A DNA stretch of 64,000 bases from an uncultured Verrucomicrobia subdivision 3 bacterium (GCA_903911825.1 CAIWFB010000194.1:2070-66069), one strand, 5' to 3'. Shown: positions 598 through 37,537, counted from the stretch's first letter. Program-made: numbers and translations. Notes: a model not told the origin generated them from the letters alone.

Positions 598-3096
598 TCA
601 CTCTGCACCTTGTGCCGGTGAGAATAAATCCATCTGCGGGGCGGGCGCGAGGCTTTTTAATTTTTCGCGGTCTTGCGTGCGCCGCGGCTGGCGCACATTG
701 CCTTCGGGCGTGAGTTCGGATTCTTCCAAGTTGCGGAGAATTTCTTTCGCACGTTCCAGCACGGGCTTCGGAACGCCAGCAAGCCGCGCGACTTGAATGC
801 CGTAGCTCTTGTCCGTGCCGCCTTCCACGATCTTGCGAAGAAAGACAATCTGGTCATGCCATTCGCGCACGGCAACGTTGAAATTTTTGATGCGCGGCAG
901 ACGCGCGGCGAGTTCGGTCAATTCGTGATAATGCGTGGCGAACAACGTTTTCGCGCCGGCCTGATTGTGCAGGTATTCCACGATGCTCCACGCGAGCGAA
1001 AGGCCATCGAACGTGCTCGTGCCGCGGCCGATTTCGTCCAATACGATAAGGCTGCGCGGCGTGGCATTGTTCAGGATGTTCGCAGTCTCGGTCATCTCGA
1101 CCATGAACGTGGATTGGCCGCGCGACAGGTCGTCGCTCGCGCCGATGCGCGTGAAGATGCGGTCCACCAGATCAATCCGTGCCTCGGCAGCGGGAACAAA
1201 ACTGCCGGTATGCGCGAGCAGCGTGAGCAGCGCCACCTGCCGGATGTAAGTAGATTTACCCGCCATGTTCGGCCCAGTGATCAAGGCGATTTGAAGCTCC
1301 TTCGTAAACGTCACATCGTTCGGAACGAAGCGTTCTTCAACCAACTGTTGCTCCAACACCGGATGACGTCCGTCGCGGATTTGCAAAACACCTTCGTCGG
1401 CAACTTGCGGACAGACGTAATTGTGCAGCCGCGCGGTTTCCGCGAACGAACCCAACACATCCAACTGTGCCAGAGCGGAAGCGCTTTGCTGGATGCGGCT
1501 CATCTGCGCGAGCACTTCTTCGCGCACGCGCTGGAAGATTTCGTATTCCAACTTCACGCTACGCTCTTCTGCGCCGAGGATTTTGCCCTCCATGTCCTTC
1601 AACTCGGGCGTGATGAAGCGCTCGCCATTCGCGACGGTCTGCTTGCGATGATAATGCGGCGGCACCTTGTCGAGATTCGACTTGGTGACTTCGATGTAAT
1701 AACCGAAAACGGAATTGAACCGCACTTTCAGCGACGTGATGCCGGTGCGCTCGATTTCATCGGCCTGCAATTTGGCGATCCAATCTTTGCCGCCACGCTG
1801 GGCGTCGCGTAGTTCGTCGAGCGCCGGTTCAAAGCCGTCACGAATCATACCGCCTTCTTTGATGGGCAATGGCGGTTCATCTACGATGGCGCGGGAAATC
1901 AATTCAACCAAGTCAGGGGATTCGGCGACTTGGTCGTTTAAATCAGCAATCAACGCTGTGCCCGCTGAATTGACCGTGGCTAACGTCTGCTTCAAAGCTG
2001 GAATCTGTTCCAACGCGGTTCGCAGCGCGACGAGGTCGCGCGCGTTGCCACTGCCGGAACTCAACCGGCCGATCGTGCGTTCCAAATCGCGAACATTCGC
2101 GAGTTGTTGGCGAAAACTGTCGAGGCCAAACGTGTTTTCCAGAAACGTTTGCACCGCTTCCTGCCGACGGCGAATCGGTTCGACGCCCGCGAGCGGTTGC
2201 GAAAGCCATTGGCGCAACAAACGCGCGCCCATTGGCGTGGCGGTGCGGTTCAGCGCGCCGTAGAGCGACGAGTTGCGCGGGGCATCGTGATGCTGCGGTT
2301 CGAGAATCTCCAGATGTCGCAGCGTGGTGTAATCTAGCGTGAGAAAATCGCTGCGCCGATAAAACGTGATGCGCGTGAGATGCTTCACGTCGCGGCGCAA
2401 ACTTTGCGTGAGGTAATGCAACACACCGCCCGCTGCGCCGATGGCGGCGGTCTTGTCTTTGAGTCCAAAGCCATCGAGCGTGGCGACTTTGAATTGTTCT
2501 TTCACCGTGTAGAACGCGGTTTCCGGCGCGAACGTCCAATCGTCGTAGCCGCTCAAAATTCGAAACGCGCCGCGCAGCAACTCTCGCAACTGCGTGGCCT
2601 CGGTGGGGAAAATGATTTCCGCAGGACGCAAGCGCTCCAGTTCCGCGAGCAGCGTGGCTTCGTTTTCCAGTTCCGTCGTGAGAAAATCTCCCGTGGTCAA
2701 ATCCACGAGCGCGAGGCCGAAGATCTTTCCGCTGGGATAAACGGCCGCGAGAAAATTATTCCGCTCGGCGACCAACATGCGTTCATCAAAGTGCGTGCCG
2801 GGCGAGAGGATTTGCGTGACCTCGCGGTTCACGAGTTTACCGGGCTTGGCTTCCTCGGTCTGTTCGCAGATGGCAACTTTTCGTCCGGCTTTGAGCACGC
2901 GCGCGATGTAATTATTCGCCGCGTGAAACGGCAGTCCGCACATCGGAATCCCGTTGCGCGCGGTGAGCGAGAGATTCAGCAGTTGCGCGCCGTCTTTGGC
3001 GTCCTCGAAGAACATCTCGTAAAAATCGCCGAGACGGAACAGCAAGAGCGCATCCTTCGGCAGTTCGCCTTTGATACGGCGATACTGCGCCATCAT
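598..3096 (-). CDS. mutS: DNA mismatch repair protein MutS
   Basis: The ORF 598..3234 carries the N-terminal MutS signature TPMMAQY...GDFYEMFFEDA, Walker A GPNMAGKST and a C-terminal helix-turn-helix region. I set the start at the ATG-ATG of TPMMAQY (3096); a GTG at 3123 is an alternative. The first 46 codons of the track ORF look like read-through into the divergent amtB upstream region. Confidence 0.95.
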   Translation of the reverse strand: MMAQYRRIKGELPKDALLLFRLGDFYEMFFEDAKDGAQLLNLSLTARNGIPMCGLPFHAANNYIARVLKAGRKVAICEQTEEAKPGKLVNREVTQILSPGTHFDERMLVAERNNFLAAVYPSGKIFGLALVDLTTGDFLTTELENEATLLAELERLRPAEIIFPTEATQLRELLRGAFRILSGYDDWTFAPETAFYTVKEQFKVATLDGFGLKDKTAAIGAAGGVLHYLTQSLRRDVKHLTRITFYRRSDFLTLDYTTLRHLEILEPQHHDAPRNSSLYGALNRTATPMGARLLRQWLSQPLAGVEPIRRRQEAVQTFLENTFGLDSFRQQLANVRDLERTIGRLSSGSGNARDLVALRTALEQIPALKQTLATVNSAGTALIADLNDQVAESPDLVELISRAIVDEPPLPIKEGGMIRDGFEPALDELRDAQRGGKDWIAKLQADEIERTGITSLKVRFNSVFGYYIEVTKSNLDKVPPHYHRKQTVANGERFITPELKDMEGKILGAEERSVKLEYEIFQRVREEVLAQMSRIQQSASALAQLDVLGSFAETARLHNYVCPQVADEGVLQIRDGRHPVLEQQLVEERFVPNDVTFTKELQIALITGPNMAGKSTYIRQVALLTLLAHTGSFVPAAEARIDLVDRIFTRIGASDDLSRGQSTFMVEMTETANILNNATPRSLIVLDEIGRGTSTFDGLSLAWSIVEYLHNQAGAKTLFATHYHELTELAARLPRIKNFNVAVREWHDQIVFLRKIVEGGTDKSYGIQVARLAGVPKPVLERAKEILRNLEESELTPEGNVRQPRRTQDREKLKSLAPAPQMDLFSPAQGAE

Positions 3097-3219: not shown

Positions 3220-4602
3220 ATGAACCCGTTTCATTTCATCAGAAGCAGAACCTTGTTGTGCTCATGTCTCGGCGGACTGGCTTTTTTGGCCACCAGCACC
3301 CTTTCGGCAGCCGAAGCCGCCACTCCAGCCTTGACCGTCAACACCGGCGATAACGCCTGGCTCCTCGCCAGCACCGCCCTCGTGCTAATGATGACCGCCC
3401 CGGGCCTGATTCTGTTTTACGGCGGTTTAGTGCGAAACAAAAACGTGCTCTCCACGATGATGCACAGTTTGATTTTGATGGCGCTGATTTCGGCGCTGTG
3501 GATGGTGTTCGGCTACAGCATGGCGTTCGCGGAGGGCAATGCCTTCTTCGGCAACCCGCTGACGTATCTCTTTTTGAAGGGCGTTGGCGCTGCACCCAAC
3601 GGCGACTATGCGGCGACGATTCCACACCAGACGTTCATGTTGTTTCAATTGATGTTCGCCATCATCACGCCGGCGCTCATCAGCGGGGCCGTGGCTGAAC
3701 GCGTGCGCTTCAGCGCGTATGTGATGTTCATGCTGCTGTGGGTGACGCTGATCTATTTTCCCTTGTGTCACATGGTTTGGGGCAAAGGCGGATATTTTAA
3801 CTGGGCGCTCGGTGGCGCGATTCCCGTGCTGGATTTTGCCGGCGGAACGGTGGTGCATATCAGTTCCGGCGTTTCGGCGCTGGTCTTTGCCATCGTGCTG
3901 GGCAAACGCGACGGTTTTCCACGTGAACCGATGGTGCCGCACAACGTGGTGCTGTCGCTCGTCGGCACCGGCCTGCTGTGGGTCGGTTGGTTTGGCTTCA
4001 ATGCGGGTAGCGCCTTGAATGCCGGCGGTCTCGCCACGAGCGCTTTTGCGGCTACGCATTTTTCTGCCGCCGCTGGTGCCTTGAGCTGGACCGCAACGGA
4101 ATGGCTGTTGAAAGGTCGTCCGAGCGTTTTAGGTTCTGCCTCCGGGATGGTCGCAGGTTTGGCCACCATCACTCCGGCCTCGGGTTTTGTGACAATTCCC
4201 GCCGCTTTCACCATCGGTTTGGCGGGCGGCATAGTTTGTTACTTCGCGGTGACCAAATTGAAAGGCGCCTTCAATTACGACGATTCACTCGACGTTTTCG
4301 GCGTGCATTGCGTGGGCAGCGTGACGGGCATGTTGCTGCTGGGCTTCTTCGCCAGCGCAGAAGTGAATCCGCTCATCGCCACGACATTCATGAAAAATGG
4401 CGCGGTGGTTTCGCTCGTCGGCAGTTCGGCGCAATTTCTCAACCAGCTCATCGGCGTGGCGTTCACGGCGGCACTGGCGGGCATCGGCACCTTCATCCTC
4501 CTGAAAGTGGTAGATAAACTGATCGGTCTGCGGGTGGACCAAGAATCCGAAAGTATCGGACTAGACCTTTCCCAACACGGCGAGAGTGCGTATAATGAAT
4601 AA
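3220..4602 (+). CDS. amtB: Ammonium transporter (Amt/MEP family)
   Basis: It has a signal peptide followed by about 11 TM helices. Amt signatures are present (DFAGGTVVHISSG, GWFGFNAGS, VHCVGSVTG). I set the start at the ATG at 3220; the track ORF begins at a TTG at 3202. Confidence 0.93.
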   Translation: MNPFHFIRSRTLLCSCLGGLAFLATSTLSAAEAATPALTVNTGDNAWLLASTALVLMMTAPGLILFYGGLVRNKNVLSTMMHSLILMALISALWMVFGYSMAFAEGNAFFGNPLTYLFLKGVGAAPNGDYAATIPHQTFMLFQLMFAIITPALISGAVAERVRFSAYVMFMLLWVTLIYFPLCHMVWGKGGYFNWALGGAIPVLDFAGGTVVHISSGVSALVFAIVLGKRDGFPREPMVPHNVVLSLVGTGLLWVGWFGFNAGSALNAGGLATSAFAATHFSAAAGALSWTATEWLLKGRPSVLGSASGMVAGLATITPASGFVTIPAAFTIGLAGGIVCYFAVTKLKGAFNYDDSLDVFGVHCVGSVTGMLLLGFFASAEVNPLIATTFMKNGAVVSLVGSSAQFLNQLIGVAFTAALAGIGTFILLKVVDKLIGLRVDQESESIGLDLSQHGESAYNE

Positions 4603-4947
<345 letters not shown>

Positions 4948-4972
4948 CAATTTAACCGCTAATCAAAATTGC

Positions 4973-7064: not shown

Positions 7065-7318
7065 CCGCGCACCTTGGCCTTGGCTTTCGCGGCTAGGTCG
7101 CGCAGGCGATCCAGACTGCCCGGGCGAAATTCACTCGCCAGCGCCTCATCAATCCACTTCTGCTGGGTCTTGGAAACTAGCGCATCTTCCAGATCAAAAC
7201 TCATTTCGATACGCGCCATCGCTTCCTGATTCACACTCCGGAAATTGCGTCCAGCCGAAGCTGCCAGCCGCATTTTAAGTTCTTTGGGGATGCCTTTGAC
7301 CTGTAAGTCTGCGCTCAT
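7061..7318 (-). CDS. Ribbon-helix-helix antitoxin (Arc/FitA-like) partner of the ParE toxin
   Basis: The 85-aa product has an N-terminal RHH pattern (LQVKGIPKELKMRLAASAGRNFRSVNQEAMARI). The ATGA overlap with the toxin gene supports the pairing. Confidence 0.6.
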   Translation of the reverse strand: MSADLQVKGIPKELKMRLAASAGRNFRSVNQEAMARIEMSFDLEDALVSKTQQKWIDEALASEFRPGSLDRLRDLAAKAKAKVRG

Positions 7319-7348
7319 AAAAAAACCATAACACCACCATTTTGGGTG

Positions 7349-8281
7349 TCAATCCATCACCGCCGCGAAGCGCAGGCCGCGCGTGCTGACGCGCAATTCT
7401 TTGAAGCTGAATTCCTGCATCACCGCTTCAAAAATCAGCACGCCCGTGAGGATGACATCCGCCCGTTGCTTGGGCAGACCGGGGATTTCTTTGCGTGCCG
7501 CGAGCGGCAGGCTCCAAAGCCGTTCGCGGTGGGCGGAGACTTGTTCCAGCGTCAGCACGGCGCGTTCGATTTTATCGCGGTCGAAGCGATCTAGCTTTTT
7601 TTCCACGCGCGCGAGAATACTCGTCGTGCCGCCAGTGCCGATGAGTTGGATCTCGCCGCGCTCGTTATTCAAAGCCGGCTCCAGTTGTGGGTGCACTTCG
7701 TGATTCAGAAAAGCGCGTAACCAATCGCGGCATTTGGTGAATTCCGCTTTGGTCGGCGGGTCGCTGTGCGGAAATTTTTCCATCAAACGCACCGTGCCGA
7801 GCGGAAAGCTGTGGGCAAAGTGTTTCTTGGTGCCCTGGCCCACGATGAATTCCGTGCTCCCGCCGCCGACATCCAGCAGCAGCAGCGGATGCGTGGCAAG
7901 TTCGGTGTCCGTGGCGACGCCTTGGAAAGCCCATTCAGCTTCGCGGGCGCCAGAAATAATTTCCGTTTTCAGGCCGCAAGCGCGTTCGATAGCGTCGGTC
8001 AAGTCGCGGGGATTTTTGGCATCGCGCGCGGCGCTGGTGGCGATGACGCGGATGGATTCAGCTGACCGCTCTCGGGCGATTTCAGAAAACTCCCAGACGG
8101 CCGCCGCTGTGTGCGCGATACTTTCAGGCTGTAGCTGATGCGTTTCGTAGAAACCTTTGCCAAGACGAGTCTGCTTGGATTCTTCGTGGATGGGCGTCAC
8201 CTCGCGACCGCGCACATCCGCCACCAACAATTTGATTGAGTTGGTGCCGACATCAATCACGGCGCGACGAACAAGTTCCAT
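7349..8281 (-). CDS. Ppx/GppA-family phosphatase (exopolyphosphatase / pppGpp phosphohydrolase)
   Basis: ASKHA-fold motifs are present (AVIDVGTNSIKLLVA, LLDVGGGSTEF, GTGGT). The length is 310 aa. Confidence 0.85.
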   Translation of the reverse strand: MELVRRAVIDVGTNSIKLLVADVRGREVTPIHEESKQTRLGKGFYETHQLQPESIAHTAAAVWEFSEIARERSAESIRVIATSAARDAKNPRDLTDAIERACGLKTEIISGAREAEWAFQGVATDTELATHPLLLLDVGGGSTEFIVGQGTKKHFAHSFPLGTVRLMEKFPHSDPPTKAEFTKCRDWLRAFLNHEVHPQLEPALNNERGEIQLIGTGGTTSILARVEKKLDRFDRDKIERAVLTLEQVSAHRERLWSLPLAARKEIPGLPKQRADVILTGVLIFEAVMQEFSFKELRVSTRGLRFAAVMD

Positions 8282-8321: not shown

Positions 8322-10463
8322 CTAATTTGTGACATTTACCGGCGCGACCTCAACGTGCGCGGCGCTGCTGGCGGTGCGGGTCAAATTGCGCGCTTCGAGA
8401 TGCACGAGGGCATTGATATCGAGAATCAAACCCACGCGACCATCTCCGAGAATCGCGGCCCCGGCGAGCAGATGGTTTTTGTAAACCATCATGTCGTTCA
8501 AATTTTTGATGACGACTTCCTGTTTATGCAGCAGGCCGTCCACGAGCAGGCAGCGCAAATCGTTACCCGCTTGCACGACCACCACGATTCCTTCCGACGC
8601 ATCCGTTTTGGTACGCGTGCCGGCGCTGAACAGTTCGTTCAGGCGCAGCAAGGGAATGATGCGGCCACGGACATTCACGACTTCCGCGCGGTTTTGCACG
8701 CGGGAAACCATGCCCGGCTGCGGGCGGAACGATTCGCGCACCGAGAGCGTCGGGAGGATGTAGCGTTCTTCGCCCACCTTGACGATGAAGCCGTCAATGA
8801 TGGCTAGCGTGAGCGGCAAACTGATTTTGAATAGCGTGCCCTTGCCAGTCTGCGACGAGATTTCCACGCGCCCACGGAGCCGTTCAATGTTTCGGCGCAC
8901 CACGTCGAGACCGACGCCGCGTCCGGAAAGATCGGTAATTTTTTCCGCTGTGGAAAAACCAGCGGCGAAGATGAAGTGAAAGATTTCTTCGTCCGAAAGT
9001 TTCGCGTCCGCTGCGACCAAGCCGCGCTCCACAGCTTTCTGAAAAATTTTATCTTTGTTCAATCCCGCGCCATCGTCTTCGATTTCCACCACAATGGTTC
9101 CGCCTTGATGATAGGCGCGCAAAGCCAGTGTGCCAGTGGGCGACTTGCCGGCGGCGACCCGCTTTTCGCTCGTCTCGATACCGTGATCCATGGAGTTACG
9201 GATCATGTGGAGCAAGGGATCGTTCAATTCTTCCACGACGCCGCGATCGAGTTCCGTGTCTTCGCCGGTCGTGATGAATTGCACTTTTTTGGAATGCTTC
9301 GCCCCGATGTCGCGCACGACGCGGGACATCTTTTGGAACACGCCGCGAATGGGCACCATGCGCAGCGACATGCTGACGCGCTGCAATTCTTTCGTGATAC
9401 GCCCGAGCTGCGCGATGTTGCGCACGACCTGCGGGTTCACATTGGAAAGTTCGTTCAGATTCTGGCCGACGAGCGATTGGGCGATGACCATTTCGCCGAC
9501 GAGATCGAGCAGGCCATCGAGCTTGCCGGTATCCACTTTGACGACGGAAGCGTGTTGTTTATCTGCGGCCGGGGCGTGTTCACCAGCCTCGACGGCAGCG
9601 GGCGTTGGGCCGGAAGTTTTGGCGGCGGCGACGGGTGCGGCATGCGCTTTGCCATCAATGATGTCCTGCGCCTCCATCTTCAAGTCGGCGGTCGAAATGA
9701 CAATCGCCTTCACGGGCCGCTTGCCGGTCAATTGACCTTCAATCTCATCAATGAACTGCTTGAGCACATCGCGGCCGCGCAAAATGGTTTCGATGACCGG
9801 CGCATCAATCACGATTTTGCCCTGCCGCGCCTGATCCAACAACGATTCGAGCACGTGCGCGAGGCGGTTGATGGGCAGCAAATTCAAAAATCCGGCGCCG
9901 CCTTTGAAGGTATGGAACGCGCGGAAAATCGTGTTCAACATCTCGGAATCGTCCGGCTGATTTTCCAAGACGAGGACGCCTTGTTCGATGTTGTCGAGGT
10001 GCTCGCGAGATTCGGTGATGAATTCCTGCAGCAACTCCGCGTCATCCGCCAAATTCAAGTTTAGTGGTGGATCATCCGTGTGGACAGTCGGGCTGTTCGG
10101 TTCGACGGGGGCCGCAGGCACGGGGGCCGTCGCCACAACCACGATGGGCTCATTCGCTACGGGCGGGGCAAGCTCGGGCATGGGCGGCGCTGCGCTGGCC
10201 AGCGCGCGGACTTGCACCAGCAAAACCTGCAACCAAGCGATGTCATCAAGGGAGAAATTCGCTCCGGATTCAACGATTTTCACCATGCGCTCCCAGGCAT
10301 CCGCACAGAAAGCCGTCAGCTTGGGAATATCTTTGGCCTCATCGCGGAGGTTGCCGATCAAATCCAGAATAGGAAATTGACCTTGGGTGTCTCCGGCCTT
10401 GGCGGTGGAGACTTCCACTGCCAATTGACCGGCCAATTTGATTATCCGACTCGCATCGCTCAT
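8322..10463 (-). CDS. cheA: Chemotaxis-type histidine kinase CheA
   Basis: Present are an Hpt motif (FRAFHTFKGGAGF), a dimerisation region, a HATPase domain (EDDGAGL, GRGVGLDVV) and a C-terminal CheW-like domain. An extra roughly 150-aa N-terminal region precedes Hpt. I set the start at the ATG at 10463; the track ORF starts at a TTG at 10493. Confidence 0.9.
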   Translation of the reverse strand: MSDASRIIKLAGQLAVEVSTAKAGDTQGQFPILDLIGNLRDEAKDIPKLTAFCADAWERMVKIVESGANFSLDDIAWLQVLLVQVRALASAAPPMPELAPPVANEPIVVVATAPVPAAPVEPNSPTVHTDDPPLNLNLADDAELLQEFITESREHLDNIEQGVLVLENQPDDSEMLNTIFRAFHTFKGGAGFLNLLPINRLAHVLESLLDQARQGKIVIDAPVIETILRGRDVLKQFIDEIEGQLTGKRPVKAIVISTADLKMEAQDIIDGKAHAAPVAAAKTSGPTPAAVEAGEHAPAADKQHASVVKVDTGKLDGLLDLVGEMVIAQSLVGQNLNELSNVNPQVVRNIAQLGRITKELQRVSMSLRMVPIRGVFQKMSRVVRDIGAKHSKKVQFITTGEDTELDRGVVEELNDPLLHMIRNSMDHGIETSEKRVAAGKSPTGTLALRAYHQGGTIVVEIEDDGAGLNKDKIFQKAVERGLVAADAKLSDEEIFHFIFAAGFSTAEKITDLSGRGVGLDVVRRNIERLRGRVEISSQTGKGTLFKISLPLTLAIIDGFIVKVGEERYILPTLSVRESFRPQPGMVSRVQNRAEVVNVRGRIIPLLRLNELFSAGTRTKTDASEGIVVVVQAGNDLRCLLVDGLLHKQEVVIKNLNDMMVYKNHLLAGAAILGDGRVGLILDINALVHLEARNLTRTASSAAHVEVAPVNVTN

Positions 10464-35671: not shown

Positions 35672-36802
35672 TCACCTCACTCGTGCCGTCAAGACTACTC
35701 CAGCCACCGCAAAAATCAAATTCGGCAACCACGCCGCCAGCCAGCCCGGCAGATGTCCGCCCATACCGAACGCCAGACTCACCGATTGCAAAACGAAAAA
35801 GCCGAAGCAGATGAAAATGCTGCCCGCCACGCCGAAAAATAAATTCCGCCGCCCCGATTGCGCGCCGAATGGAATCGCCATGAGCACCACGATAAAGCAC
35901 GTCCACGGCGCGGCGAGCCGGGCGTGAAATTTCGTGAGCAGGCGCGCGCCTTTCTGGCCCTTCAGATCTGGATTCTCTTTGAGATACGGCCACAGTTCAG
36001 ACAACGGAATATCCGCGTTGCGCGAGGCGAGCAAACCGTCCGTCTCGCTAAATTTTATTTCCAACAAAATCTGCGACGGCGTTTCGACGAACTCCGGCAT
36101 CGCGATTTCGTTCGTGGAAAATTGCGGCGTCAGCCGACCGCTTTTGCCGGTCTGCGCGAAGAATTGCACCTTGGAAAAGGTCCACGCGCCATTCGTCCAC
36201 ACCCCGCGCTCCGCCAGCAGCCCGCGCCAGGAACCGTCCGGCAACGTCCACGTGGCATTCGGGTTGATCATCGTGGTCGTTTTTGCATCGTATTGATTCA
36301 TCACCCACAGCCGGTTCACGCGCGCGAGCAAAAAGCGCACATCGGTGAACACGGTTTTATTTTTGCTGTGCTTGGCAGGCTCGGGATTTTGAACGTAACG
36401 ATTCAAAATCTCCGCCGCCGACCGCGTGCCCCACGGCACCGCGAATTCGTTCAACACGAAATAAACTCCCGTCGCCAACAGCCCCACCACGAAATACGGC
36501 GCGCACAACCGCCACAAGCTGATGCCCGCCGCGCGCAGCGCCGTGAGCTCGTTACTTTTGGCGTGTTGCGTCAGCGCGTAGAGCAGGGCCAGCAGCAGCG
36601 CGATGGGCAACACCATCACAAAAAATTCCGGCGCTTTGGCGGAGGCATATTCCACCGTGTCGCCAAAATGCAATTTAGCATCGCGCAGATGTTCCAGCTC
36701 GGTGAAAAAGAAGAAGGACAACCAGAACACGAAAAAAGCGCCGAGGCAGAAAGCCAGCGGCGTGATTAATTCGCGGAACAAGTATCGGTCGTGCAACCGC
36801 AT
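35672..36802 (-). CDS. LptF/LptG-family LPS export permease
   Basis: The N-terminus MRLHDRYLFRELITPLAFCL is typical of YjgP/YjgQ. It has 6 TM helices with a large periplasmic loop. The length is 376 aa. Confidence 0.85.
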   Translation of the reverse strand: MRLHDRYLFRELITPLAFCLGAFFVFWLSFFFFTELEHLRDAKLHFGDTVEYASAKAPEFFVMVLPIALLLALLYALTQHAKSNELTALRAAGISLWRLCAPYFVVGLLATGVYFVLNEFAVPWGTRSAAEILNRYVQNPEPAKHSKNKTVFTDVRFLLARVNRLWVMNQYDAKTTTMINPNATWTLPDGSWRGLLAERGVWTNGAWTFSKVQFFAQTGKSGRLTPQFSTNEIAMPEFVETPSQILLEIKFSETDGLLASRNADIPLSELWPYLKENPDLKGQKGARLLTKFHARLAAPWTCFIVVLMAIPFGAQSGRRNLFFGVAGSIFICFGFFVLQSVSLAFGMGGHLPGWLAAWLPNLIFAVAGVVLTARVR

Positions 36803-36970
36803 TCGCGCAGGTTAAACGGCGCACGGGCGTTCTGCCAATGGAATTGATGCGCCGAACCAAAGCCGGATGACGCCGCCGAGCTGCGCCCGCAGATCGCATT
36901 AACTCATTTGGCTGCCACGGGAACAACCAGCACTGGCGCACGACGCCCACGCAACATCCAACGACAACTG

Positions 36971-37180
36971 CGAAACATCTAACGGTAGATGCGAATTATC
37001 GCTCTACCGATACGAAACATATCGCGGCGCATTCGAACAATCATAATAACCATGCAAAACATATCGCGATGCCAGCGAAAGATACTGTTCTGACTGCGAA
37101 GCATAAGACTTCCGATTTGTAAGATTAAGTTACAGACGCGAAACATTAGCCGAACGATTCGAAACATCCGCCGACATACG
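36971..37180. repeat. Tandem array of ten 21-bp units with a conserved 8-nt head CGAAACAT
   Basis: Unit starts are 36971, 36992, 37013, 37034, 37055, 37076, 37097, 37118, 37139 and 37160, an exact 21-nt register. The heads read cgaaacat, cgaattat, cgaaacat, cgaacaat, caaaacat, cgaaagat, cgaagcat, tgtaagat, cgaaacat, cgaaacat. The tails are variable. Confidence 0.85.
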
Positions 37181-37219
37181 CAGTTGACACCTTTTTCGCC
37201 TCTGCCTACGCTTTTGGGC

Positions 37220-37537
37220 ATGGAAACAGTCGAAAAACCCGCAGAACCCGCCAATTTAACCCCCCGACCAGACTTGGAAGCTCTGCTGGCGGCCATTGGC
37301 CACCCGGTGCGGTGGCGGATGTTGCAGGCGCTGGCCAGTGGCGAAGTGCGGACGATTGCCGAACTGGCGACCGCCGGCGGCTGCGCTTACCAAAGCGGCG
37401 TGAAACACATGGTCACCCTGCGCGAGGCGGGCTTGGTGGTGCAGGGCCGCGGCTGGCTTTACCAGATTCCCGCACACTACCTGCCCAACCCCAGCCAGCC
37501 GGTGGTGGATTATGGGCATTGCCTGCTGAGATTTTGA
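37220..37537 (+). CDS. ArsR/SmtB-family winged-helix transcriptional regulator
   Basis: The sequence LLAAIGHPVRWRMLQALASGEVRTIAELATAGGCAYQSGVKHMVTLREAGLVV matches the ArsR HTH core. I set the start at the ATG at 37220; the track ORF starts at 37184, inside the promoter-like region. Confidence 0.8.
   Translation: METVEKPAEPANLTPRPDLEALLAAIGHPVRWRMLQALASGEVRTIAELATAGGCAYQSGVKHMVTLREAGLVVQGRGWLYQIPAHYLPNPSQPVVDYGHCLLRF

Follow-up and report, generated by a model that had tools for sequence, protein, structure and literature searches.

Eleven helically phased 21-bp units upstream of a divergent ArsR/SmtB-type winged-helix gene: a candidate cooperative binding platform in Verrucomicrobia subdivision 3

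Directly upstream of a gene for a divergent ArsR/SmtB-type winged-helix (wHTH) protein, an uncultured Verrucomicrobia subdivision 3 bacterium carries an array of eleven direct repeats in an exact 21-bp register. The array was found in a stretch of 64,000 nucleotides, here called the window, and its features are collected in Table 1. We lean towards the reading that it serves as a dedicated cooperative DNA-binding platform of the adjacent wHTH protein, which would in this way control its own leaderless promoter.

The original prediction described ten units, at 36971-37180; the exact 21-nt register was reproduced, whereas the count had to be raised, since an eleventh unit (unit 0) precedes them in phase. 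As had been claimed, the heads of units 1, 3, 9 and 10 match CGAAACAT perfectly (mismatches in units 1 to 10: 0, 2, 0, 2, 1, 1, 1, 3, 0 and 0), and head positions 4, 7 and 8 (A, A and T) are invariant over these ten units. The tails, which had been described as largely unrelated, are indeed divergent, although columns 13-14 (CG) and 19-21 (ATG/ATT) are informative. Beyond the eleven units, the in-phase segments on either flank have 4-8 head mismatches. Shifted against itself by 21, 42 and 63 nt, the 231-bp block shows a self-match of 0.514, 0.556 and 0.470, respectively, and the array has a slight 42-bp super-period. Dinucleotide-preserving shuffles gave an expectation of 0.266±0.031 for lag 21 (z≈8), and none of 5000 shuffles reached the observed self-match at any lag from 5 to 69. 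The non-random feature is the phasing; the word CGAAACAT shows no excess in the window, where 6 copies compare with 4.2 expected. Tandem Repeats Finder reported nothing for the array, its tails being too divergent. Since 21 bp corresponds to two helical turns, the eleven units lie on one face of the DNA, and both the helical phasing and the tie to the adjacent ArsR-type gene are upheld by our analysis.

Table 1. Coordinates of the array, its surroundings and related elements elsewhere in the same genome.
Feature	Contig	Position	Strand	Remarks
21-bp unit array, 11 phased units	window	36950..37180	+	231 bp; CGAAACAT-like head
Unit 0, in-phase extra unit, head CGCAACAT	window	36950-36970	+	1 mismatch to CGAAACAT
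Heptad-like ORF (MFR repeats) reading the array	window	36979..37296	-	spurious; no Pfam match
-35-like hexamer TTGACA	window	37184-37189	+	4 bases past last unit; 37181-37183 between
-10-like hexamer TACGCT	window	37207-37212	+	7 nt before ATG at 37220
105-aa divergent ArsR/SmtB-type winged-helix gene	window	37220..37537	+	stop codon included
Predicted recognition helix, residues 57-69, QSGVKHMVTLREA	window	37388..37426	+	helix in AlphaFold2 model
Conserved C-terminal tail PSQPVVDYGHCLLRF	window	37490..37534	+	in place of usual alpha5 dimerisation helix
Array upstream of Ala-rich protein	C7	5025-5393		
Array upstream of Ala-rich protein	C79	9908-10279		
Array upstream of Ala-rich protein	C47	17285-18079		
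Array upstream of Ala-rich protein	C150	4497-5210		
Array upstream of Ala-rich protein	C283	8057-8668		
Array upstream of Ala-rich protein	C321	28822-29529		
Array upstream of Ala-rich protein	C353	1173-1928		
Array upstream of Ala-rich protein	C126	2065-2838		
Array upstream of Ala-rich protein	C311	1838-2596		
Dispersed repeat copy	C2	~7150-7480		
Dispersed repeat copy	C61	~4600-4950		
Dispersed repeat copy	C75	1-250		
Dispersed repeat copy	C314	~2380-2700		
Dispersed repeat copy	C102	~10150-10460		

The array lies in a gap of 417 bp, the length originally given, after an LptF/LptG-family permease gene on the minus strand (35672-36802; PF03739, E=9e-65), and on its right side an aconitase-family gene comes after the gene for the 105-aa HTH_20 protein. 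G012 and G009, the closest relatives, have a different region upstream of lptF/G, so that the module does not occupy a conserved chromosomal site. In agreement with the original prediction, the array is non-coding and the minus-strand ORF is an artefact of its periodicity. A 62-aa part of this ORF is annotated in public assemblies (36979-37167, minus strand) and is very likely spurious. The coding reading was rejected on two grounds: the ORF has no Pfam match, and its MFR frame is broken in three of four orthologues (six stops in L025, five in L026 and three in L029). On the plus strand, the frame of the downstream gene meets a stop at 37091. An RNA element was also considered and rejected, since a search of Rfam with the array gave no relevant match at E≤1 and its single-strand folding was unremarkable (z=-1.66); being upstream of the promoter, the array would lie outside the mRNA of the downstream gene. 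The claim that it is not a CRISPR stood, and among defence-system models the sole match was the generic wHTH domain of Csa3.

Comparison with related sequences suggests that the array is maintained. An identical protein is present in four other metagenome assemblies, in which the 420 bp upstream differ by a single base (37159 T>G) and the array has the same number of units (11). Four orthologues with 71-74% protein identity (L025, L026, L028 and L029) lie in different gene neighbourhoods, one having a ROK-family gene upstream and another an NgoMIV-type restriction gene downstream. When the five sequences were anchored at the ATG, there were no gaps between -294 and +3, and the window and all four orthologues contain 11 units in one register, from -270 to -40, the equivalent of unit 0 being recognisable at -270 in L028 and L025. 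In this alignment, head columns 3, 4, 5, 7 and 8 are conserved at 0.78-0.85 compared to 0.45-0.57 for the tail centre, which yields a head consensus of yGAAAyAT with free tails; a matrix of the 55 units has an asymmetric core of ~15 bp, AynGAYnCGAAAnAT. The original prediction had made its claim depend on conservation of the motif in related genomes, and motif, unit number and register are all kept in the orthologues. Because conserved heads combined with free tails are not expected from drift or from homogenisation of whole units, the comparison argues that the array, and its heads especially, is under selection.

The promoter-like element between array and gene, TTGACA-N17-TACGCT followed by the ATG at 37220, was found as claimed, and conservation backs the promoter call. 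TTGAC stands exactly at -36 from the ATG in the window, in L025, L026, L028 and L029 and also in L002, and TACGCT at -13, again followed by 7 nt and the ATG, is identical in the four orthologues. Across the protein family described below, TTGhh occurs at -38 to -30 in 32 of 49 loci and TAnnnT at -15 to -7 in 29 of 49, the two together being present in 28 of 49 versus 0.2% at random positions. A generic sigma-70 scan did not call the promoter, because its -10 element, weak by E. coli standards, matches TATAAT at only three of six positions. The TACGCT-N7-ATG geometry implies a leaderless mRNA whose transcription would start at the ATG, a feature that the original prediction had not mentioned. 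The -35/-10 spacer (37190-37206) contains a TTTTGACC-like word that is conserved in the four orthologues (TTTTCGCC in the window and TTTTCCCC in L026), and this highly conserved word could be a candidate for a second, conventional operator.

The encoded protein is a divergent winged helix of the ArsR/SmtB type, whose C-terminal peptide, DYGHCLLR, is invariant. It matches PF12840 (HTH_20) at E=1.7e-6, with 28.3 bits above the 27-bit cut-off, and falls below the cut-off of the NCBIfam ArsR/SmtB subfamily model NF033788 (32 versus 55 bits); a phmmer search against PDB sequences recovered SmtB at E=0.007. The AlphaFold2 monomer model (pLDDT 74) has helices at residues 19-26, 29-38, 46-53 and 57-69 and a beta strand at 80-82, and thus contains the alpha1-alpha2-alpha3-alphaR-beta wing fold of the ArsR/SmtB family. 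YgaV, CadC, SmtB and NolR were the best Foldseek matches, with TM about 0.55-0.6 over about 67 residues; those listed are ArsR/SmtB-type repressors and other winged-helix domains, and TubR is not among them. After the wing, no alpha5 helix is predicted in the monomer model, in which residues 85-105 form a low-confidence coil, with pLDDT values under 50 at residues 99-105. At the end of the chain stands PGQPVVDYGHCLLRF, and the conserved PGQPVVDYGHCLLR peptide occupies the alpha5 region. Among 14 homologues, Q93, D97, G99, H100, C101, L103 and R104 are invariant and C55 nearly so, and the DYGHCLLR peptide is conserved across all of the specificity subgroups set out below. One possible role of its His-Cys tail is that of a site for sensing metals or redox state, which is typical of ArsR/SmtB proteins.

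The original prediction had proposed that the array be sought upstream of orthologous arsR-like genes in relatives, and there it was found. In a search of 40 relatives, a 21- or 42-bp array is present in 13 of the 14 homologues with E<1e-7; in L002, the closest of these, the heads resemble CGATAACAT. When one genome per species was scanned, 53 family loci were obtained, often several per genome and up to six modules, nearly all of them in metagenome-assembled genomes (MAGs) from soil and freshwater labelled Verrucomicrobia subdivision 3 / Limisphaerales, with a few under other labels such as Bifidobacteriaceae and Candidatus Aquilonibacter. Upstream self-match peaks at lag 21, 42 or 63 in 48 of 51 testable loci, the three exceptions being truncated matches. 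Median array length in the family is 246 bp, with an interquartile range of 213-275 (about 8-14 units), and the median position of the right end is -41 relative to the ATG. The genome of the window itself also encodes two paralogues (on C109 and C41), each of them immediately preceded by five units of 42 bp whose motifs are unrelated. A profile search extended the protein family to about 298 clusters (50% identity) at E≤1e-10, mostly full-length and about 105-115 aa long.

There is no conserved neighbour gene, in that no neighbour is common to more than 7 of about 50 loci; recurrent neighbours resemble, on reading their sequences, a metallo-beta-lactamase-fold protein or FtsK. Searches for plasmid and phage relatives of the protein returned generic ArsR matches or none. 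One and the same gene, whose product resembles a beta-CASP-like metallo-beta-lactamase-fold protein as judged by its HAHIDHAGNLP motif, lies upstream in seven loci (L050, L057, L059, L064, L069, L081 and L084) whose wHTH modules belong to different motif subgroups, which suggests that specificity at one chromosomal site changes or is replaced fast. At L016 / L099 (G022:C11, about 7500-7800), the wHTH gene copy is broken up among reading frames and probably represents a pseudogene; an AT-rich 21-bp array is still found upstream of it, and a leuC-like gene lies downstream, as in the window.

The array motif differs between subgroups of the protein. The recognition-helix region is nearly identical in five loci with CGAAACAT arrays (SYQSGVKH, or AYQSGVKH in the window) and differs in subgroups with other array motifs. 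Proteins with SPDMTSKHLA are accompanied by ACAATAAA..TAT.TAT arrays (7 loci), those with SYxSG[IV]KHLQVL by GCCGA...AAAAAGCA.TCCC arrays (8 loci), those with HYDNA.RHL by GATAA.TTt.AAC arrays (7 loci) and those with SYQSGVKHM.TL by CGAAACAT arrays; paralogues from the same genome fall in different motif subgroups. For proteins that are 65-80% identical outside the helix, the similarity of motifs amounts to 0.68 with helices ≥80% identical and to 0.36 with helices <60% identical. Over the whole set, however, the partial Spearman correlation of helix and motif is 0.12 versus 0.34 for the rest of the protein, and L101 breaks the rule, since it has YQSGVKH as in the window protein and yet a GCCGA-type motif. 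Because of this weak partial correlation and the L101 exception, the covariation of helix and motif is only suggestive and is to a large extent confounded with ancestry. Each of the three arrays in the window's genome is the sole phased cluster of its motif, the best and next array-motif scores being 103 versus ≤22, 170 versus ≤14 and 154 versus ≤17, and a regulon search of this genome found no second phased cluster for any of the three motifs.

Taken together, the conserved heads, the fixed unit number and register, and the family-wide linkage with subgroup motifs point to a reader that is sequence-specific and varies among subgroups, for which the adjacent wHTH protein is the parsimonious candidate. 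We infer from these comparisons that the protein binds the array and that it does so cooperatively. In the mechanism that we propose, each ~15-bp core would be occupied by a single protein unit, which is probably dimeric and makes one strongly specified contact, and with cores placed every two helical turns the eleven units would line up along one DNA face, where their cooperative binding would build a nucleoprotein filament of about 230 bp. As the final unit adjoins the -35 element of the promoter that serves the protein's gene, with its putative leaderless start, the filament would set the expression of that gene. The DYGHCLLR peptide may link neighbouring units or offer a common docking or sensing surface. 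The stability of the array, with one SNP across the four other samples, and the DNA-binding ArsR/SmtB fold of the protein are consistent with this proposal, whereas the asymmetry of the core, unlike a single 12-2-12 inverted-repeat operator overlapping the promoter, counts against it, and an operator of the conventional type might be situated in the -35/-10 spacer instead.

Canonical members of the ArsR/SmtB family (SmtB, CadC, CzrA, BigR and NolR) have one or two 12-2-12 inverted repeats overlapping the promoter and dimerise through alpha1/alpha5. The module resembles them in fold, in size and, putatively, in belonging with autoregulated small genes, and the conserved Cys and His could form a sensing site. 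It differs in the lack of a predicted alpha5, in its DYGHCLLR end, in an NCBIfam score of 32 bits, below the 55-bit cut-off, and in its array, which has 8-14 units across the family; in place of a 12-2-12 inverted repeat, the conserved cis-element in the window is the asymmetric ~15-bp core, directly repeated eleven times upstream of the -35 element.

Exact 21/42-bp arrays are also a genome-wide feature of the genus, mostly without such a regulator gene, which the original prediction did not mention. In the 3.9-Mb assembly, segments of ≥50% self-match define 38 loci at lag 21 and 42 loci at lag 42, and ≤9 loci at every other lag from 6 to 60. Of the 74 arrays that could be delimited, about 48 fall outside called genes, and every array has a motif of its own (for example C315:1184-1413, C7:5553-5784, C136:13322-13545, C336:17556-18080, C126:16546-16869 and C143:4769-5137); many of the units are short palindromes whose arms change together, such as CGGAyTGAATyCArTCCG. 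Within the window, there is no further 21/42-bp periodic locus besides the array studied. The relative G022, of the same genus, has the same exclusive enrichment of lags: in the first 400 kb of its contig C3, lag 21 gives 7 loci, lag 42 gives 8 and lag 63 gives 6, compared to ≤1 locus at all other lags (L030-L049). Only three arrays in the window's genome adjoin a wHTH gene or gene remnant, and neither was found beside about 45 other intergenic 21/42-bp arrays. Among 35 arrays with genes called on both sides, 9 lie between convergent genes, about the chance frequency, counts that are approximate as the orientation of flanking genes comes from crude ORF-based gene calls. Since some 45 arrays occur without the gene and about a quarter of those flanked by called genes lie between convergent genes, the 21-bp format does not need the wHTH protein.

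Two further sets of repeats were noted in the same genome. About eleven arrays lie directly upstream of genes whose products are helical and rich in Ala, with a C-terminal tail rich in Lys or Pro (Table 1); several of these proteins have a YGxDSxxL-like motif in common, they have no significant Pfam match except fn3 in the protein on C150, and they may represent a second array-linked gene family. In addition, a dispersed repeat of about 330 bp is present in five copies that are 80-92% identical (Table 1) and consists of CGAAAAAT...TTTCGGCG hairpin units at 21-bp spacing, with an open Arg-rich heptad frame of uncertain reality on the opposite strand. The CGAAAAAT arrays had been considered as a regulon of the window's protein and were rejected, since they are a separate hairpin repeat whose matrix score of ~18-22 equals the background, versus 103 for the array itself.

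Because the exact two-turn period is common to dozens of unrelated arrays, a structural role is the main rival to the proposed binding platform. The array would then be one among the genus-wide 21/42-bp arrays, a DNA element whose small bends, phased at two turns, add up to curved or readily wrapped DNA, independent of the wHTH protein and acting as an upstream promoter-activating or insulating element or as a general nucleoid-protein site, while the regulator would bind elsewhere, for instance in the promoter spacer. The genome-wide data fit such a role, in that only lags 21 and 42 (21, 42 and 63 in G022) are enriched, the period stays constant while motifs differ between arrays, and most arrays have no adjacent wHTH gene; within the array itself, a phased A-tract (AAA) inside the conserved head and the fixed register relative to the -35 element are also in keeping with it. 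Curvature, however, leaves unexplained the conservation of C8, G9, A14, T15 and the GAy of columns 4-6, the retention of subgroup-specific motifs across genomes, and the near-obligate linkage of arrays to one small gene family (48/51). The placement of 9 of 35 arrays between convergent genes, being at chance level, argues moreover against a general promoter role. On balance we regard the structural role as possible but rather unlikely.

More speculatively, the 21/42/63-bp arrays of subdivision 3 Verrucomicrobia may be a general class of addressable chromosomal elements, each with its own adaptor variant, of which the DYGHCLLR family would be the first recognisable reader; the C-terminal peptide would tether the 3-6 addresses of a genome to a shared host factor, making the system a chromosome-encoded, NTPase-less analogue of a plasmid centromere system and not an ordinary transcription factor. 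We put this forward as a long shot. Another alternative is that the array in the window is a chromosomal centromere-like or positioning site and the wHTH protein its NTPase-less adaptor, comparable to StbA/stbS or to TubR/tubC without TubZ. The array would be one chromosomal address, the C-terminal peptide would dock to a shared host factor, and autoregulation would be secondary. The layout matches that of plasmid centromeres that double as operators, with ~10 direct repeats upstream (PMC6009700; bioRxiv 10.1101/2022.04.29.490116). Each motif array is unique in its genome, several modules of different motif subgroups occur in one genome, and a variable DNA specificity is combined with an invariant C-terminal peptide, all of which would fit this reading. 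We nevertheless consider a centromere-like or positioning role doubtful: a conserved partner gene nearby was not found, nor were plasmid or phage relatives, the Foldseek matches listed are ArsR/SmtB-type and other winged helices and not TubR, and the His-Cys tail could just as well belong to a metal or redox sensor. A classical partition locus, which the original prediction had raised, is not borne out: a direct-repeat array upstream of the gene for a candidate binding protein is present, but an adjacent ParA, ParM or TubZ-type NTPase gene, or another conserved partner gene, is absent, the neighbours being of the lptF/G type and the aconitase family.

The module would belong to a known kind, in which small HTH proteins bind operators or centromeres made of repeat arrays, and it differs from each of the systems compared. 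In TubR-tubC of type III plasmid/prophage partition systems (pBtoxis and c-st), the direct repeats are always upstream of the protein's own gene, and the TubR nucleoprotein complex covers part of the promoter and autoregulates it (PMC6009700). A small winged-helix protein with direct repeats upstream of its own gene is likewise found here. The tubC units, however, are ≤12 bp and arranged in blocks, as opposed to 11 contiguous units of 21 bp; the TubZ GTPase is encoded downstream of tubR, whereas none is encoded at the array locus; TubR-tubC is carried by plasmids or prophages, whereas the locus studied lies on the chromosome, and a genome contains several paralogous modules; and the wHTH protein is nearest in sequence and fold to ArsR/SmtB metal sensors, not to TubR. 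StbA of plasmid R388 is both a repressor and a centromere-binding protein that binds cooperatively to stbS, ten direct repeats in its own promoter region, with no dedicated NTPase (bioRxiv 10.1101/2022.04.29.490116). The module has in common with it a single small HTH protein, the absence of a dedicated NTPase and repeats at the protein's own promoter, but stbDR consists of two sets of five 9-bp units that recur every 11 bp (one turn), compared to one block at 21 bp here; StbA also has further short arrays elsewhere that form a regulon, whereas no second array of the motif occurs in the genome, and StbA is plasmid-borne with a fold like homeodomain/PadR-type proteins, in contrast to the winged helix here. 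Plasmid systems with ribbon-helix-helix proteins also use repeat arrays, namely ParR-parC, with ten 11-bp iterons in R1 and 20-bp repeats in pSK41, and omega with its heptad arrays on pSM19035; ParR and omega bind cooperatively, form superhelical complexes and autorepress their genes. What the module has in common with them is a set of about 10 direct repeats, helically phased, at the promoter of the gene for the binding protein, whereas the ribbon-helix-helix fold, the actin-like or ParA partners and repeats that flank or overlap the core promoter set these plasmid systems apart.

Both remaining alternatives are disfavoured. Neutral expansion of a minisatellite by replication slippage, with the gene linkage merely historical, is very improbable. 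Many other arrays in the genome do look young and fairly homogeneous, for example the six perfect units at C114:1-126. A minisatellite would, however, be expected to vary in unit number between close strains, its units drifting or homogenising in their entirety, whereas in the array studied 11 units are kept and heads are conserved while tails are free across orthologues of 71-74% identity, unit number and register are fixed and there is no copy-number variation among the four samples; the gene linkage in 48/51 loci is equally against it, and slippage does not account for the lack of enrichment at periods of 20, 22 and 24 bp. Iteron-Rep origins (pPS10, R6K and RK2) have 17-22 bp direct repeats with roughly 22-bp phasing beside a winged-helix gene, and their Rep proteins have two winged-helix domains and act beside DnaA boxes and AT-rich unwinding regions. 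Although 21-22 bp direct repeats at two-turn spacing beside a winged-helix gene resemble such origins, the suggestion that the units are iterons of a chromosomal or integrated-plasmid origin has next to no probability, as the dnaA and GC-skew checks originally proposed placed dnaA on contig C27 rather than on the array's contig and gave no skew switch near 37 kb, no Rep-like gene lies nearby, the 105-aa protein has a single winged-helix domain instead of two, DnaA boxes and an AT-rich unwinding region are not seen, the modules number three in this genome and up to six in others, plasmid relatives were not found and the flanking genes are housekeeping genes.

In full-text literature searches, we found no description of the gene-array module or of the genome-wide 21/42-bp arrays. 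If the regulator does coat its private array, the family would constitute a set of natural protein-DNA pairs with distinct motifs, in which a common scaffold (11 sites, two-turn spacing and a leaderless promoter) carries a diversified specificity. Such pairs would provide a compact system for studying the co-evolution of DNA recognition together with cooperative filament formation, and possibly a source of non-cross-reacting parts. The module also offers a first handle on why these genomes hold dozens of intergenic arrays of exactly 21 or 42 bp.
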